Of a stretch of 23,636 bases of DNA, positions 3,603 through 23,636 are shown piece by piece. The position numbers and the translations under genes are program-made. The stretch comes from a virus (lineage: Duplodnaviria > Heunggongvirae > Uroviricota > Caudoviricetes), in the IMG/VR virus record IMGVR_UViG_2897328257_000001; one strand, 5' to 3'. Position 1 is the stretch's first letter, and each line of letters opens with the position of its first letter. The notes under the pieces are model-generated. The model made no database searches, was not told where the DNA came from, and saw nothing but the letters and a program-made list of their open reading frames with translations.

Positions 3603-3965
3603 TTAACGACCTGCTGCGCGGAGTTTTCCGTCAGGTTCACCGGCAAGAGTCAGTAATTGTCCCTGGTCTTCCTGCAGAATAGTCAGGCGACCACCGCGAT
3701 TGACATACATCGGCGTTTCGGTGGTGTCTTCTTCGGAAATTTTCCCGCGGTTAGTTGGGCGAACATATGAGAGTTTGTGTTTGATTTTCACACGGTTCTC
3801 ATCAAACGGTTCGATTTCCAGATTGAGTGAGACCTTCCCTTTGGTTTTCGTGTTCATCACACCGGAAGCGACCTCACTGAGAACTGCGCCGATTTTGGTT
3901 TCAAATACGCCGCCGTCCAGCTCCCCGATAAATGCCTGCACATCAGTACTGCGTTCGCTAGCCAT
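3603..3965 (-). CDS. Hypothetical early protein, 120 aa (YfdP-like); start at ATG 3965 (MASERSTDVQ...)
   Basis: AGGAG 7 nt upstream of ATG at 3965; the longer ORF-track N-terminal extension is Cys/Arg/Pro-rich and runs into the GC-rich non-coding region, so is unlikely to be translated. Confidence 0.65.
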   Translation of the reverse strand: MASERSTDVQAFIGELDGGVFETKIGAVLSEVASGVMNTKTKGKVSLNLEIEPFDENRVKIKHKLSYVRPTNRGKISEEDTTETPMYVNRGGRLTILQEDQGQLLTLAGEPDGKLRAAGR

Positions 3966-4014
3966 TTTGCTGCTCCTCATCATATCGACCCTGCAAGGTC
4001 GGTTGGTTTCTCCA

Positions 4015-4101
4015 CAAAACAGAGAAGAACACCTGCGGTGGCAGCCGCCCGGATGGATTGGGTTATGAGCCCGTCGTCCGGTGATGCTCTTCTCTGTTTT
4101 G
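4015..4101. other. Long-range perfect 14-bp inverted repeat (CAAAACAGAGAAGA at 4015-4028 / TCTTCTCTGTTTTG at 4088-4101) enclosing a 59-nt GC-rich segment with nested small hairpins; candidate structured RNA element
   Basis: Seen directly; a 14-bp perfect IR with a 59-nt spacer is very unlikely by chance in 23 kb. Confidence 0.5.
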
Positions 4102-4111
4102 CAAAAAAGGA

Positions 4112-4220
4112 CGGTACCAGCCGGAAGCAAGGGTACAAACTGGTACCGCCAGGACTACACACAGCATAAACTTGTGGTGCCGGGTGCCTCCCGGTGCCTG
4201 GCGAAGGTTGCACACCAGGC
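4112..4220 (+). ncRNA. Candidate structured non-coding RNA region: tandem GC-rich hairpins (CGGTACCAG 4112-4120 / CTGGTACCG 4140-4148; CCGGG-tgcct-CCCGG 4180-4194; GCCTGG 4196-4201 / CCAGGC 4215-4220)
   Basis: Several perfect stems within about 110 nt in a region with no credible ORF; flanking G-T pairs extend the 4180-4194 stem only on the plus strand (G-U in RNA), weakly favouring plus-strand function; no family assignment possible without searches. Confidence 0.35.
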
Positions 4221-4376
4221 GGGTGGGTATCCACAGAAGGTCGACTGTCAGCCTCAACCTTAACCCGCGTGCGCTGAGCCGCATTCACCACAACGCTAAG
4301 GATTCTCTCTGGTTGAAAATACTTAGCTGTTATGTGCCTGCTTTTAGCCACATCAGGCGAGGTGGACCTGGTTATT

Positions 4377-4421
4377 CCCCAACAACAAGGATTCGGTTAA
4401 TCTGGATATCCCCAACAACAA
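4377..4421 (+). repeat. Direct repeat of 12-mer CCCCAACAACAA (4377-4388 and 4410-4421), each preceded by GGTTA, in the leader of the plus-strand ORF
   Basis: Seen directly; CA-rich repeats immediately upstream of the putative start codon. Confidence 0.5.
4399..4417. repeat. Left copy of about 19-bp imperfect inverted repeat (AATCTGGATATCC-c-CAACA) flanking the 4436-4951 ORF
   Basis: 13-bp perfect core AATCTGGATATCC at 4399-4411 is the reverse complement of 4967-4979; flanks also match in inverted orientation (18 of 19). Confidence 0.6.
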
Positions 4422-4435
4422 TAAGAGTATTCAAT

Positions 4436-4951
4436 GTGATCGCTGAATTAACGGCAGCAATGACGGCTATTCGTGAAACAGCCCAGATTGCAAAACTAAT
4501 GAACGAGGCAAAAACTCAAGCTGAAGTAAATGCGGCTATTGGTGAGCTGAACTCAAAGCTTGCGTCTATTCAGCGCGAATGCGTGTCTCTCGTTGAACTG
4601 GTGGGCTCTTATCAAGAAATAAATGCTTCTCTCAAAGCTAAAATTGCAGAATTCGAAAACTTTGAGGCTCAGACGGAAGGCTATATCCTTAACCAACTTG
4701 AGTCGGGTACTTTTGTATACTCGAAGGAGGTAATCGTGAACGGTGGCAGCATAACCATGCATCTTTGCCCAAAATGTTTTGGACAAAAGATAGTATCGAT
4801 ACTTCAACCATTCCCGGTTAGCGAAGATGAGCTTTTTCATAAAAGCAGGTGCCTCCACTGTGAAAATAAGTTTCTGATGAATAAAAATCCGGATTACGTA
4901 TCGCCTCCATCCATTGAGGAGTTGTCCAGAAAACTTAACGGCAATCTGTAG
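4436..4951 (+). CDS. Hypothetical protein, about 171 aa: N-terminal coiled-coil-like helical region plus C-terminal CxxC...CxxC zinc-ribbon-like motif (CPKC ... CLHC); candidate moron, function unknown
   Basis: Longest ORF in an AT-rich segment; putative GTG start at 4436 with AAGAG 8 nt upstream (alternative ATG at 4460); intrinsic terminator 40 nt after stop; oriented opposite to the PL operon; flanked by inverted repeats. Confidence 0.6.
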   Translation: MIAELTAAMTAIRETAQIAKLMNEAKTQAEVNAAIGELNSKLASIQRECVSLVELVGSYQEINASLKAKIAEFENFEAQTEGYILNQLESGTFVYSKEVIVNGGSITMHLCPKCFGQKIVSILQPFPVSEDELFHKSRCLHCENKFLMNKNPDYVSPPSIEELSRKLNGNL

Positions 4952-4960
4952 ATTACTACT

Positions 4961-4979
4961 GTTGTGGATATCCAGATTG
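4961..4979. repeat. Right copy of the about 19-bp inverted repeat (core GGATATCCAGATT at 4967-4979)
   Basis: Reverse complement of 4399-4411 core; contains 10-bp palindrome TGGATATCCA. Confidence 0.6.
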
Positions 4980-4988
4980 TTAAAGAGC
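4976..4988 (-). promoter_or_regulatory. rrn-type boxA-like element on the PL transcript (minus-strand GCTCTTTAACAAT); candidate nutL-type NusB/NusE site
   Basis: 13 of 13 match to the core of the E. coli rrn boxA (TGCTCTTTAACAATTTATCA, from memory), about 105 nt downstream of the predicted PL start, where nutL sits in lambdoid phages. Confidence 0.45.
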
Positions 4989-4990
4989 TA

Positions 4991-5014
4991 AGCGTCCTGT
5001 AGGGCGCTTTTTTG
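4991..5014 (+). terminator. Rho-independent terminator for the plus-strand ORF (AGCGTCC-tgta-GGGCGCT followed by TTTTTT)
   Basis: 7-bp stem (one G-U) plus six T; the stem is weaker on the minus-strand RNA (A-C mismatch) and no U-tract follows in that direction, so it is unidirectional. Confidence 0.7.
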
Positions 5015-5081
5015 TTGCTAACGAATCATCCTGGACTTCATATGCCCCAGGCGGCTACTTCGTGGGCGTCCTGCCTGTTTG

Positions 5082-5120
5082 TTGTTTCTCTTGGGTACAT
5101 TATGTATCTCATAGGTACAT
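5082..5120. promoter_or_regulatory. OL-like operator region: 19-mer ATGTATCTCATAGGTACAT (5102-5120) plus degenerate copy TTGTTTCTCTTGGGTACAT (5082-5100)
   Basis: Shares the GTAC-containing symmetric 19-mer pattern with the OR sites (TTGTACC-N5-GGTACAA; ATGTAC-N7-GTACAT); overlaps the PL -10 and spacer. Confidence 0.5.
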
Positions 5121-5130: not shown

Positions 5131-5153
5131 AAAAAAACCTGCCGAAGCAGGTT
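5131..5153 (-). terminator. Rho-independent terminator of the repressor transcript (minus-strand RNA AACCUGC-UUCG-GCAGGUU + UUUUUUU)
   Basis: Perfect 7-bp stem, UUCG tetraloop, 7-U tract, 13 nt after the cI-like stop codon. Confidence 0.85.
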
Positions 5154-5165
5154 CATAAACATTGA

Positions 5166-5840
5166 TTAGGCTTTGATTTTGTATCTTCTTGGTTTTCCTG
5201 AGAAAATCACAGTTCCAATTATAGAGCAATTACCGTTGATCTTAATGTAAGGCTCAGGCCAGTTTGGGTTTAACGCTTTGAGATAACGCTGTGTCCCATC
5301 TTCTATCAACCTTTTGAAGGTGGTTTCACCTGTATCGTGCATCAATGCAATAACGTCGTCACCGTGGCAGGCAGGTACTTCAGGATCGACAAAAATCATG
5401 TCTCCCGGGCGGTACTCATCAATCATTGAATCACCTATCACCCGCAAGATATAAGTCATTTCCCCACAGGGTACAGGGCAGGGATACGTTTCTGCTGTGC
5501 TCAAATCAACCTCAGAATATCCAACTTCTTTCCATGCTCCGGCCTGTACCCATGATATGACAGGGACTAATGTGATTTGTTTATTAGTGATTGAAACATC
5601 AGGTTTTTTTGTGATGTTCGTTGTCTGGTGTTCTTGATCGAGCCATCCGACAGGCAGGTCGAAACATTTTTCGATGTGTCGTGCCATGCTGTCACCGATA
5701 TTTTTAGTAGCACCATCTCCCATAAACCTGCTGGTCTGGGTTGGCTCGCGATCAATCATAGTGGCAAAGGAAGAATTCCCTCCAACACCATCTCTCAGTT
5801 TTCTGGCGTTAGACCGCCGGATGTCATGGATTGTTTTCAT
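5166..5840 (-). CDS. CI-like prophage repressor with C-terminal LexA/S24 peptidase (autocleavage) domain, 224 aa
   Basis: C-terminal VIGDSM ... GDMIFVD ... TFKRL (Ser/Lys dyad) typical of S24 repressors; divergent from a cro-like gene across an operator region; no SD before the ATG (possible leaderless PRM transcript as in lambda). Confidence 0.85.
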   Translation of the reverse strand: MKTIHDIRRSNARKLRDGVGGNSSFATMIDREPTQTSRFMGDGATKNIGDSMARHIEKCFDLPVGWLDQEHQTTNITKKPDVSITNKQITLVPVISWVQAGAWKEVGYSEVDLSTAETYPCPVPCGEMTYILRVIGDSMIDEYRPGDMIFVDPEVPACHGDDVIALMHDTGETTFKRLIEDGTQRYLKALNPNWPEPYIKINGNCSIIGTVIFSGKPRRYKIKA

Positions 5841-9198: not shown

Positions 9199-10440
<1,242 letters not shown>

Positions 10441-22600: not shown

Positions 22601-23052
22601 GCATTAAATCGCACACCCACAGCGCCAGCGCATCCAGTACGGATTTGGGTACGAAAACCACATCGTCGTTTGATTACGGCACTAAATCCACGAATAACAC
22701 CGGGGCACATACACACAGTGTGAGCGGCTCTACAAACTCGGCTGGAGCACACACACACTCACTAGCCAACGTGAACACGGCTAGTGCTAACTCCGGTGCT
22801 GATAGTGCATCAACAAGATTGTCTGTTGTGCATAATCAAAACTATGCAACATCATCTGCTGGCGCACATACCCACTCACTGTCCGGCACTGCTGCAAGCG
22901 CAGGTGCACACGCACATACTGTCGGTATTGGTGCTCATACGCACTCGGTTGCGATTGGCTCACATGGACACACCATCACCGTTAACGCTGCTGGTAACGC
23001 GGAAAACACCGTCAAAAACATCGCATTTAACTATATTGTGAGGCTTGCATAA
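19690..23052 (+). CDS. stf: Side tail fibre protein Stf (mosaic; long Ala/Ser-rich low-complexity region, divergent central domain, C-terminal His-rich GAHTHS-type repeats), 1120 aa
   Basis: N-terminus [26 protein letters not shown]... and C-terminus ...[29 protein letters not shown] match lambda Stf as recalled; ATG at 19690 preceded by GGGG (the ORF-track GTG at 19684 is not used). Confidence 0.9.
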
Positions 23053-23636
23053 TGGCATTCAGAATGAGTGAACAACCACGGACCATAAAAATTTATAATC
23101 TGCTGGCCGGAACTAATGAATTTATTGGTGAAGGTGACGCATATATTCCGCCTCATACAGGTCTGCCAGCAAACAGTACCGATATTGCACCGCCAGATAT
23201 TCCGGCAGGCTTCGTGGCTGTTTTCAACAGTGATGAGGCATCGTGGCATCTCGTTGAAGACCATCGGGGTAAAACCGTCTATGACGTGGCTTCCGGCGAC
23301 GCGTTATTTATTTCTGAACTCGGCTCATTACCGGAAAATGTCACCTGGTTATCCCCGGAAGGGGAGTTTCAGAAGTGGAACGGCACAACCTGGGTGAAAG
23401 ATGCAGAAGCAGAAAAACTGTTCCGGATCCGGGAGGCGGAAGAAACAAAAAACAGCCTGATGCAGGTAGCCAGTGAGCATATTGCGCCACTTCAGGATGC
23501 TGCAGATCTGGAAATCGCAACGGAGGGAGAAACCTCGTTGCTGGAAGCCTGGAAAAAGTATCGGGTGTTGCTGAACCGTGTTGATACATCAACTGCACCT
23601 GATATTGAGTGGCCTACGAACCCTGTCAGGGAGTAA
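23052..23636 (+). CDS. tfa: Tail fibre assembly protein Tfa, 194 aa
   Basis: [44 protein letters not shown]... matches lambda Tfa family; start overlaps the stf stop. Confidence 0.93.

Follow-up and report, generated by a model that had tools for sequence, protein, structure and literature searches.

Background

Antitermination in the ribosomal RNA (rRNA) operons, rrn, relies on a boxB-boxA-boxC leader acting together with NusA, NusB, NusE, NusG, SuhB and S4, and the role of the rrn boxA in protecting transcription from Rho has long been known. The complexes that form on rrn-type boxA sequences counter Rho-dependent termination but do not efficiently counter intrinsic terminators. In the lambdoid phage HK022 antitermination is achieved by the put RNA, a protein-independent cis-acting antiterminator that works without boxA or Nus factors. 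Control by a stand-alone boxA and Nus factors was long considered to be confined to rRNA and was later extended to suhB and to arrays of clustered regularly interspaced short palindromic repeats (CRISPR). The boxA consensus and the suhB target have been described (PMC5725501), and a stand-alone boxA has been shown experimentally to shield long untranslated CRISPR transcripts from Rho (PMC7665894). The present analysis concerns a boxA on the early-left transcript, which starts at the promoter PL, of an Escherichia coli lambdoid prophage; it lies in a 23,636-nt stretch of viral DNA (IMG/VR record IMGVR_UViG_2897328257_000001), referred to below as the window.

The related phages LLS, ST64B and phiNP, which also carry yfdP/Q/R early-left genes, have been reported in a 2025 study to lack an N homologue, and the mechanism of early antitermination in N-less phages of this type is an acknowledged open question (PMC12315714). 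For the boxA described here we propose, at roughly even confidence, that it is a stand-alone, N-independent site at which host Nus factors protect PL transcription from Rho over an untranslated cassette lying antisense to the operon. No description of this boxA, and no data on Nus-factor recruitment to prophage sites from chromatin immunoprecipitation or gel shifts, were found in the literature searched, and what is new here is the stand-alone boxA in a mobile, antisense-cassette context. If the proposal is correct, prophage antisense cassettes would constitute a third natural context for such sites.

Identity and position of the boxA

The motif GCTCTTTAACAAT fits both the experimentally derived gamma-proteobacterial boxA consensus, GYTCTTTAANA (PMC5725501), and the rrn sequence UGCUCUUUAACAA perfectly (coordinates of this and all other features are collected in Table 1). 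It is the sole match in the window with two mismatches permitted, and by our own arithmetic the chance expectation of an exact 13-mer is about 7e-4 in 2 x 23,636 positions. The rrnH leader of K-12, read directly, runs …GTCGCAAC TGCTCTTTAACAAT TTATCAGACAATCTGTGTGGG…, with TGCTCTTTAACAATTT as its boxA part, and the prophage and rrnH boxA sequences are identical at 13 of 13 positions. A first-pass annotation of this DNA had placed a 13/13 match to the rrn core on the minus strand, about 105 nt past the PL start and directly behind the reverse of a terminator hairpin. The match proved exact, and the other two observations were likewise borne out: the boxA lies at about +105 on the PL transcript, on the same strand as a sigma-70 promoter that agrees with the consensus at 11 of 12 positions, and the reverse of the hairpin ends 3 nt before it, with the rrnH hairpin ending 4 nt before its own boxA. 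The orientation of the boxA relative to PL is invariant among related loci, in which it is always PL-sense and 28-33 nt past the end of a conserved leader. No second, nutR-type boxA was found on the PR side, and the sole other GCTCTTTA sits within a tail gene.

The hairpin before the boxA folds with -11.5 kcal/mol on the plus strand, where it has a G.U pair and a U6 tail. On the PL strand the energy is -7.5 kcal/mol: a C.A mismatch takes the place of the G.U pair, and UUAGCUCUUUAAC comes next instead of a U-run. It is a directional terminator, which halts the transcript of the cassette gene before PL and cI and lets PL transcription through. The 'rrn-like' succession of hairpin and boxA that had been pointed out earlier, although correct as to order, has the terminator of the cassette gene as its main explanation, the hairpin being stronger on the cassette strand.

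Stx2a-converting phages of the 933W type also have the 17-mer GCTCTTTAACAATCTGG, and phi80 has a slightly diverged form of it. The phi80 record annotates the motif as 'nutL boxA' about 65 nt past the pL -10, with 'nutL core' 45 nt farther on and gene N behind that. On this sequence evidence the prophage boxA is homologous to bona fide nutL boxAs, and through its 17-nt identity with an annotated nutL boxA it is of a type known to serve Nus factors. The expectation that a boxA here would occupy the place of nutL is partly borne out by the data: the position is comparable to that of the annotated phi80 nutL, but the boxA is linked to a cassette and absent from SfV and e14, and so is not a general early antitermination site. 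In comparison with nut and put regions, the boxA has the identity with Stx2a-type nutL but no boxB behind it, and the leader shares only an 8-mer with putL. In the cassette types compared, the sequences after the boxA diverge right behind ATCTGG and contain no boxB and no conserved local hairpin.

The absence of an N-like gene noted in the first-pass annotation is upheld. No N family was found by Pfam, PHROG and PADLOC scans of the PL-strand open reading frames (ORFs) and all major ORFs of the window, and the same databases gave no N- or Q-family match for a 123-aa ORF at 3980-4351, SfV orf33, yfdP or the major window ORFs. The RefSeq annotation of an identical complete prophage lists no N, while Q is present there and annotated quuD. 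It might be supposed that the boxA belongs to a non-canonical nut serving an unrecognised RNA-binding antiterminator, encoded elsewhere in the prophage or in a co-resident one. Identity to the nutL boxAs of N-dependent phages would suit such an arrangement, and E. coli strains often hold several lambdoid prophages; the genomes that bear this region do contain further places matching it. We nevertheless regard the idea as highly improbable in view of the divergence right past ATCTGG with no conserved boxB hairpin, the negative N-family scans of the window and annotation of the identical prophage, and the report that related N-less phages are without N (PMC12315714).

Conservation of the boxA

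Conservation was judged on loci retrieved without reference to the boxA. Loci from a scan for TCTTTAACAATCTGG carry it by construction and were left out of these claims; about one quarter of the matches of that scan, and two thirds of those to the hairpin pattern, are unrelated chance contexts. In two retrieved sets, together 126 loci, 116 have the consensus at the homologous 11-mer; the others are three with T at position 2 and two with A at position 10, both of these changes being allowed by the consensus, and one lineage of five with A9G. Retrieval by the hairpin only yielded 20 distinct junction-type sequences, 19 of which keep GYTCTTTAANA, with C10A seen in four independent contexts. The surrounding bases are variable, both before the boxA (A, C, T or none) and after it (ATCTGG, ATCAGT or ATTTTG). 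When loci were retrieved by the cassette protein, GYTCTTTAANA was kept on the opposite strand, just 3' of the cassette gene, even where the protein is only 55-68% identical.

The boxA is also kept behind two unrelated hairpin types and across several immunity types with different repressors and operators. In the second junction type a hairpin of the form GCCGGA-12 nt-TCCGGC, which is a terminator on neither strand, directly precedes the same boxA followed by ATCTGGATATCC. This second hairpin (L056 3545-3590; also L050-L070, L074-76, L216 and L242) has a folding energy of -20 kcal/mol (z = -3.6) on the cassette strand, and the phages that carry it have a different repressor and a 50-aa ORF between leader and hairpin. 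The retention of the boxA across these lineages, which are related, suggests a modest but consistent signal of purifying selection.

One locus, L083, is a hybrid (PL strand ~1626-1900; compared with phi80 L293 1201-1330 and L175 2650-2790) in which an e14-type leader and a partly deleted hairpin are joined exactly at the boxA to a phi80/Stx2a-type nutL remainder. Recombination has therefore occurred exactly at the boxA, which on the evidence of this join is a crossover point between modules. This raises the question of whether the boxA is simply the leftover half of a canonical nutL, or a recombination joint, with little or no present function in an N-less context. Such an origin would account for the occurrence of the same 17-mer as the nutL boxA of N-dependent Stx2a/phi80-type phages, for the join in L083, for the divergence of the cassettes immediately past ATCTGG, as a crossover point would show, and for the fact that SfV and K-12 e14 manage without a boxA. 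A functionless 11-mer should decay, yet this one is intact in the proportions given above, its changes fall mostly at two tolerant positions while its neighbours vary freely, and it persists behind two unrelated hairpins and beside well-diverged cassette genes. We consider a boxA of little or no function unlikely, and a recombination joint and a working boxA can both hold.

The same junction may also be read from the cassette strand. Cassette mRNAs end in …AUUGUUAAAGAGC followed by the terminator hairpin and a U-run, the layout of a small RNA (sRNA) that is derived from a 3' untranslated region (3'UTR) and binds Hfq, and the seed of such an RNA might be directed against the boxA of incoming phage nut leaders or host rrn leaders, in superinfection exclusion or host modulation. 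On the plus strand the boxA complement is indeed unpaired and lies just before the cassette terminator, the 3' end is common to unrelated cassette genes, and the hairpin is optimised on that strand. This possibility is very unlikely, since the boxA is still kept beside the second junction hairpin that terminates on neither strand, is retained where there is no convergent gene (L083 and canonical nutL contexts) and is invariant in its orientation to PL; abundant rrn leaders would, in addition, be expected to titrate an anti-boxA RNA.

Linkage of the boxA to antisense cassettes

Comparison with SfV delimits the segment to which the boxA belongs. SfV agrees in cI, PL and the leader as far as …CCAGGATGATTCGTT, then diverges (orf33) and is without boxA, and homology returns at CAGGCACATAACAGC (~4338); positions ~4339-5021 of the window are therefore a replaceable slot, which spans from the leader to GGCACATAACAGC. 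In a survey of 80 viral contigs retrieved by the cI protein, cassette types of 667, 683 (this window), 692, 799, 886 and 933 nt share a start consisting of the reverse-terminator hairpin, the boxA and ATCTGG, after which they diverge. Each carries a different gene of 144-173 aa antisense to PL, and all finish in …CCAGATT, behind which the flank is constant. In the orf33-type cassettes (526 and 553 nt) hairpin and boxA are both absent. The slot is an exchange hot spot, with at least seven antisense cassette types plus cassettes of the ymfJ/ymfI type; K-12 e14 has the boxA-less ymfJ/ymfI version. No consensus promoter for the cassette genes was found on the plus strand.

The association with antisense genes was counted in loci retrieved by cI or by the leader, independently of the boxA. 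Among 17 cassette clusters eight have the boxA, all eight sharing the junction, and seven of these eight contain an ORF of 144-173 aa antisense to PL. The nine clusters without it are sense-coding, GC-rich and non-coding (ST64B, phiNP), or made up of a sense ORF and a short convergent ORF. The boxA is missing from SfV and K-12 e14 despite the same cI, PL and leader and, at greater distance, from ST64B, phiNP, mEp237, SPN3UB, ZF40 and YeP1. The boxA is the PL-proximal edge of a swappable cassette and not part of the PL leader; membership in the leader is ruled out by SfV, e14 and six leader-retrieved phages without boxA. A strict rule by which the boxA is present if and only if there is an antisense gene is ruled out as well, by L083 and by the ymfJ/ymfI-type cassettes.

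The junction is found in 790 of 5426 complete E. coli genomes. The 799-nt cassette, with boxA, is present in the published viable phage SfIV (as its 'unique' ORFs 35/36), and PhiR49_1 has the cassette of the window.

A proposed role in protection from Rho

Behind the boxA, the next 0.5-0.9 kb of the PL-strand RNA run antisense to the cassette gene and are for that reason untranslated, and expression of yfdP from PL needs transcription over both the cassette and the STnc100-like terminator behind it. We infer the binding of Nus factors and the protection from Rho; the motif, its identity to rrn and nutL sequences, its conservation and its linkage to antisense cassettes are observed. After induction, RNA polymerase coming from PL would go through the cassette terminator in its weak reverse orientation and transcribe the boxA, the RNA of which would be bound by NusB and NusE (S10). 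NusA, NusG and SuhB would then join to give a termination-resistant complex, as on rRNA operons and CRISPR arrays, and the antisense stretch would be guarded from Rho-dependent termination. Polarity would in this manner be prevented, and the early-left genes yfdP-yfdT, xis and int would stay expressed despite the insertion. Neither an N protein nor a boxB would take part.

The sole PL-strand ORF antisense to the cassette gene, of 101 aa (4553-4858, minus strand), stays open in the diverged homologues L056 and L090. Its open frame is probably an artefact of the sense gene, though translation of this ORF, if it occurs, would leave less of the PL transcript untranslated.

Several observations weigh against protection from Rho as the function of the boxA. 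The boxA would not explain how the STnc100-like terminator at ~4103-4147 is passed, and its sequence, which occurs in the nutL of other lambdoid phages too, could have been kept as a joint for recombination. L083 retains the boxA before a sense-oriented, AT-rich moron, while the orf33 and ymfJ-ymfI cassettes and those of L089 and YeP1 have a convergent gene of ~80-100 aa yet no boxA. The flanks of the boxA cassettes are common by descent, so that the association in seven of eight clusters does not amount to seven independent events. The composition of the cassettes is, finally, only mildly like that of Rho-utilisation (rut) sites, with C over G by 0-4 points. In favour of the proposal, a potential for Rho loading is suggested by windows with C in excess of G (ratio 1.5-2.9), which the antisense cassettes contain and the SfV orf33 segment lacks, but these are mild and a strong rut signature was not borne out.

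The earlier suggestion of antitermination by host factors only can accordingly be retained in part: N-independent action is the most plausible function for this sequence, but it does not by itself explain passage of the terminator-like hairpin behind the cassette. If protection from Rho is the function, it would explain how genes opposing an essential operon are tolerated without polar, Rho-dependent loss of xis and int. The presence of the arrangement in the viable phages SfIV and PhiR49_1 speaks for the proposal, and the junction is common in E. coli.

Inverted repeats around the cassette

The slot is bounded by AATCTGG…/…CCAGATT inverted repeats. The PL-proximal arm (AUCUGGAUAUCC…) opens 1 nt past the boxA core, its partner ending in …CCAGAUU lies 400-800 nt downstream, and every type of cassette with a boxA has the PL-distal arm at its far end. 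A Watson-Crick core of 12-14 bp is present in 41 distinct arm pairs; the full duplexes comprise 12-25 bp at -22 to -35 kcal/mol, with cassette-specific extensions (GGATATCC, GGATGACT or GTAACCCTC). A first comparison of repeat energies between the strands was biased towards the PL strand. Selection on the repeats as RNA of the PL strand may be acting, but the pair counts do not demonstrate it: G.U pairs are in excess there (73 vs 16) because the conserved arm is C/A-only in composition, and transversions (89) are as frequent as transitions.

The rrnH leader has its boxA followed by the sequences of the 16S processing stem, as read in K-12 and in keeping with established knowledge of rrn, and a comparable role in RNA folding can be envisaged here. 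A Nus complex would tether the boxA to RNA polymerase while the arms pair, the cassette RNA would be looped out as in the 16S precursor, and a site for RNase III might be created. The opening of the 5' arm 1 nt past the boxA core in essentially every cassette type, the matching 3' ends, the length and stability of the duplexes with their cassette-specific extensions, and the order found in rrnH all fit such chaperoning or processing. An inverted DNA repeat could equally serve the cassette mRNA (by pairing of its 5' and 3' ends), a DNA-binding protein or recombination, and the G.U excess, being compositional, lends no strand preference. Chaperoning, which is compatible with protection from Rho, seems to us quite unlikely.

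Protection from Rho and arm pairing may also be combined. Hairpin, boxA and inverted repeat would then form a portable 'insulator kit' for accessory genes placed backwards in an early operon, in which the Nus/SuhB complex both shields RNA polymerase from Rho and chaperones the pairing of the arms, so that the antisense RNA is looped out and perhaps excised by RNase III. We give this combination little credence, on a par with chaperoning taken singly. If true, it would mean that the rRNA-style machine for transcription and RNA folding has been co-opted by mobile cassettes in about 15% of complete E. coli genomes.

The PL leader RNA and the STnc100-like module

The leader in front of the junction forms the very start of the PL transcript and has been conserved after at least eight types of operator, in phages with and without the boxA. 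It is present, unannotated, in SfV, SfII, SfIV, phiNP, ST64B, mEp237, mEp460, SPN3UB, SEN34, ZF40, YeP1-3 and Pantoea AH07, and it has no Rfam family. Its hairpin of 5 bp has a conserved 12-nt loop, GGCRUAUGAAnn, with compensatory changes in all five pairs; the covariation score is 0.50 compared with 0.15 in shuffles (22 cells), and none of 500 shuffles reaches it. A covariance model finds one copy of the leader per phage, on the PL side only.

Homology of the leader to HK022 put was considered and is not supported, as only the 8-mer CAGGAUGA is shared with putL, there is no copy at PR, and the covariance model has no match in the HK022 immunity region. One covarying hairpin is supported in the leader, as against the two stems of put RNA. 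A separate hairpin, located before the nutL boxA in Stx2a-type phages (L175 2610-2650) and in L277, reads GUCGUACGGCGCGAC UUAACCC / GUCGAACGGCGCGAC UUUAAACC and closely resembles putL stem I of HK022, GACGAACGGCGCGUC UUUAAACC. This likeness hints that put and some nut leaders have a common origin.

Between the cassette and yfdP lies a GC-rich module, conserved in SfV too, that resembles the sRNA STnc100 and was the only match in a permissive Rfam scan of the window. It ends in a terminator-like hairpin, GGTACCAG…CTGGTACC followed by T6, at ~4103-4147. RefSeq annotates a 'frameshifted hypothetical protein' over the same interval, which is probably not a gene. Because rrn-type boxA complexes are weak against intrinsic terminators and SfV has no boxA, some other device must carry PL transcription through this hairpin. 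For the N-less class the conserved leader RNA may be a cis-acting antiterminator, and at this terminator it is a better candidate than the boxA. The problem of how N-less lambdoid phages achieve early antitermination has thereby gained a concrete candidate.

Prophage context

The window belongs to an e14/SfV/SfIV-type lambdoid prophage of E. coli that is inserted beside tRNA-Arg and has the gene order intD, yfdT/R/Q/P (early-left), cI = ymfK, cro = ymfT and the cII-like ymfL. Many E. coli genomes contain an identical copy, as do two phage isolates, PhiR49_1 and PhiR29. GGTACAT-type operator repeats surround PL.

The prophage in this window is defective. An element of the IS3 family of insertion sequences (9227-10440; orfA 9227-9574, orfB 9694-10440) links a Dam-like gene straight to the tail tape-measure gene, which it abuts; the prophage has therefore lost the Q, lysis and head genes, all of which are absent from the window. 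At gathering thresholds Rfam gives only two matches in the window, both away from the boxA region: isrC (150 bits, 9259-9381), inside the orfA region of the insertion sequence, and IS009 (225.7 bits, 23395-23593), which overlaps the tail-fibre-assembly gene at 23052-23636 (Caudo_TAP) at the end of the window.

Table 1. Features of the early-left region of the prophage, with positions in the window
Feature	Position	Strand	Basis or remark
boxA GCTCTTTAACAAT (11-nt core 4978-4988)	4976-4988	-	Scan, consensus and rrnH comparison
Intrinsic terminator of cassette gene, AAGCGTCCTGTAGGGCGCTT + T6	4990-5009	+	Terminator scan
Cassette gene, 171 aa, phrog_1244, coiled coil and CxxC…CxxC, WP_000559922	4436-4951	+	Convergent with PL
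PL-proximal repeat arm AUCUGGAUAUCCACAACAGUAGUAAU	4952-4977	-	Pairs with 4399-4425, -29.7 kcal/mol on PL strand
PL-distal repeat arm …UUGUUGUUGGGGAUAUCCAGAUU	4399-4425	-	Just upstream of the ribosome-binding site of the cassette gene on the other strand
Third, constant, degenerate repeat copy CCUUGUUGUUGGGGAAUAACCAGG	4367-4390	-	Shared flank; kept in all cassette types
Conserved PL leader RNA, ~70 nt, covarying 5-bp hairpin CCUGG…CCAGG (5022-5050), loop GGCAUAUGAAGU	5011-5086	-	Covariation
STnc100-like sRNA module	4101-4316	-	RF02076 full-length model, 39 bits vs gathering 47, E = 1.2e-6
yfdP, first conserved early-left protein gene past cassette	3603-3965	-	RefSeq annotation of identical locus
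PL promoter TTGACA-16-CATAAT	5126-5099	-	11/12 consensus; start near 5092
cI (ymfK) terminator	5135-5154		PL just beyond
cI-type repressor (ymfK, LexA/S24 family)	5166-5840	-	Annotation

Comparison with known systems

Mobile ORFs flanked by promoters and stem-loops in T4-type phages, and the 'morons' of lambdoid phages, are examples of regulatory cassettes that mediate gene shuffling. The slot resembles these in that unrelated accessory genes, each with its own terminator, are swapped between conserved regulatory flanks; it differs in that the flanks are an inverted repeat and a boxA and that the genes lie antisense within an early operon. HK022 offers a parallel of another kind, as an N-less lambdoid phage with a conserved structured RNA at the 5' end of the PL transcript, although the counterpart of that RNA here is the leader and not the boxA.

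The nutL sites of lambda, P22, phi21, phi80 and 933W/H-19B are likewise found on the PL transcript within ~100 nt of its start; with Stx2a-type nutL the boxA shares 17 identical nt, and to the 'nutL boxA' of phi80 it is nearly so. At this locus, in contrast, there is no boxB ('nutL core') and no N gene, and sister phages in which PL and leader are the same do not have the boxA. Stand-alone boxA sites outside rRNA, such as those of CRISPR arrays, share with it a GYTCTTTAANA early in a long untranslated transcript and, by our proposal, protection from Rho. The present site is set apart by its location in a phage PL operon, at the junction of a mobile cassette with inverted repeats.

In comparison with rrn itself, the hairpin in the prophage is the reverse of a terminator, replaced elsewhere by an unrelated hairpin with a 6-bp stem and a 12-nt loop, and is not an rrn boxB; the GU-rich boxC of rrn is absent from the prophage junction; and the RNA that would be protected lies opposite a protein-coding gene within the early operon of a prophage. 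What the two have in common is a boxA identical at all 13 positions in rrnH, a hairpin that ends 3-4 nt upstream, a long untranslated RNA behind the boxA and, if our proposal holds, independence of any phage protein; the repeat arm behind the prophage boxA may likewise correspond to the arm of a long-range stem that follows the boxA in rrn.

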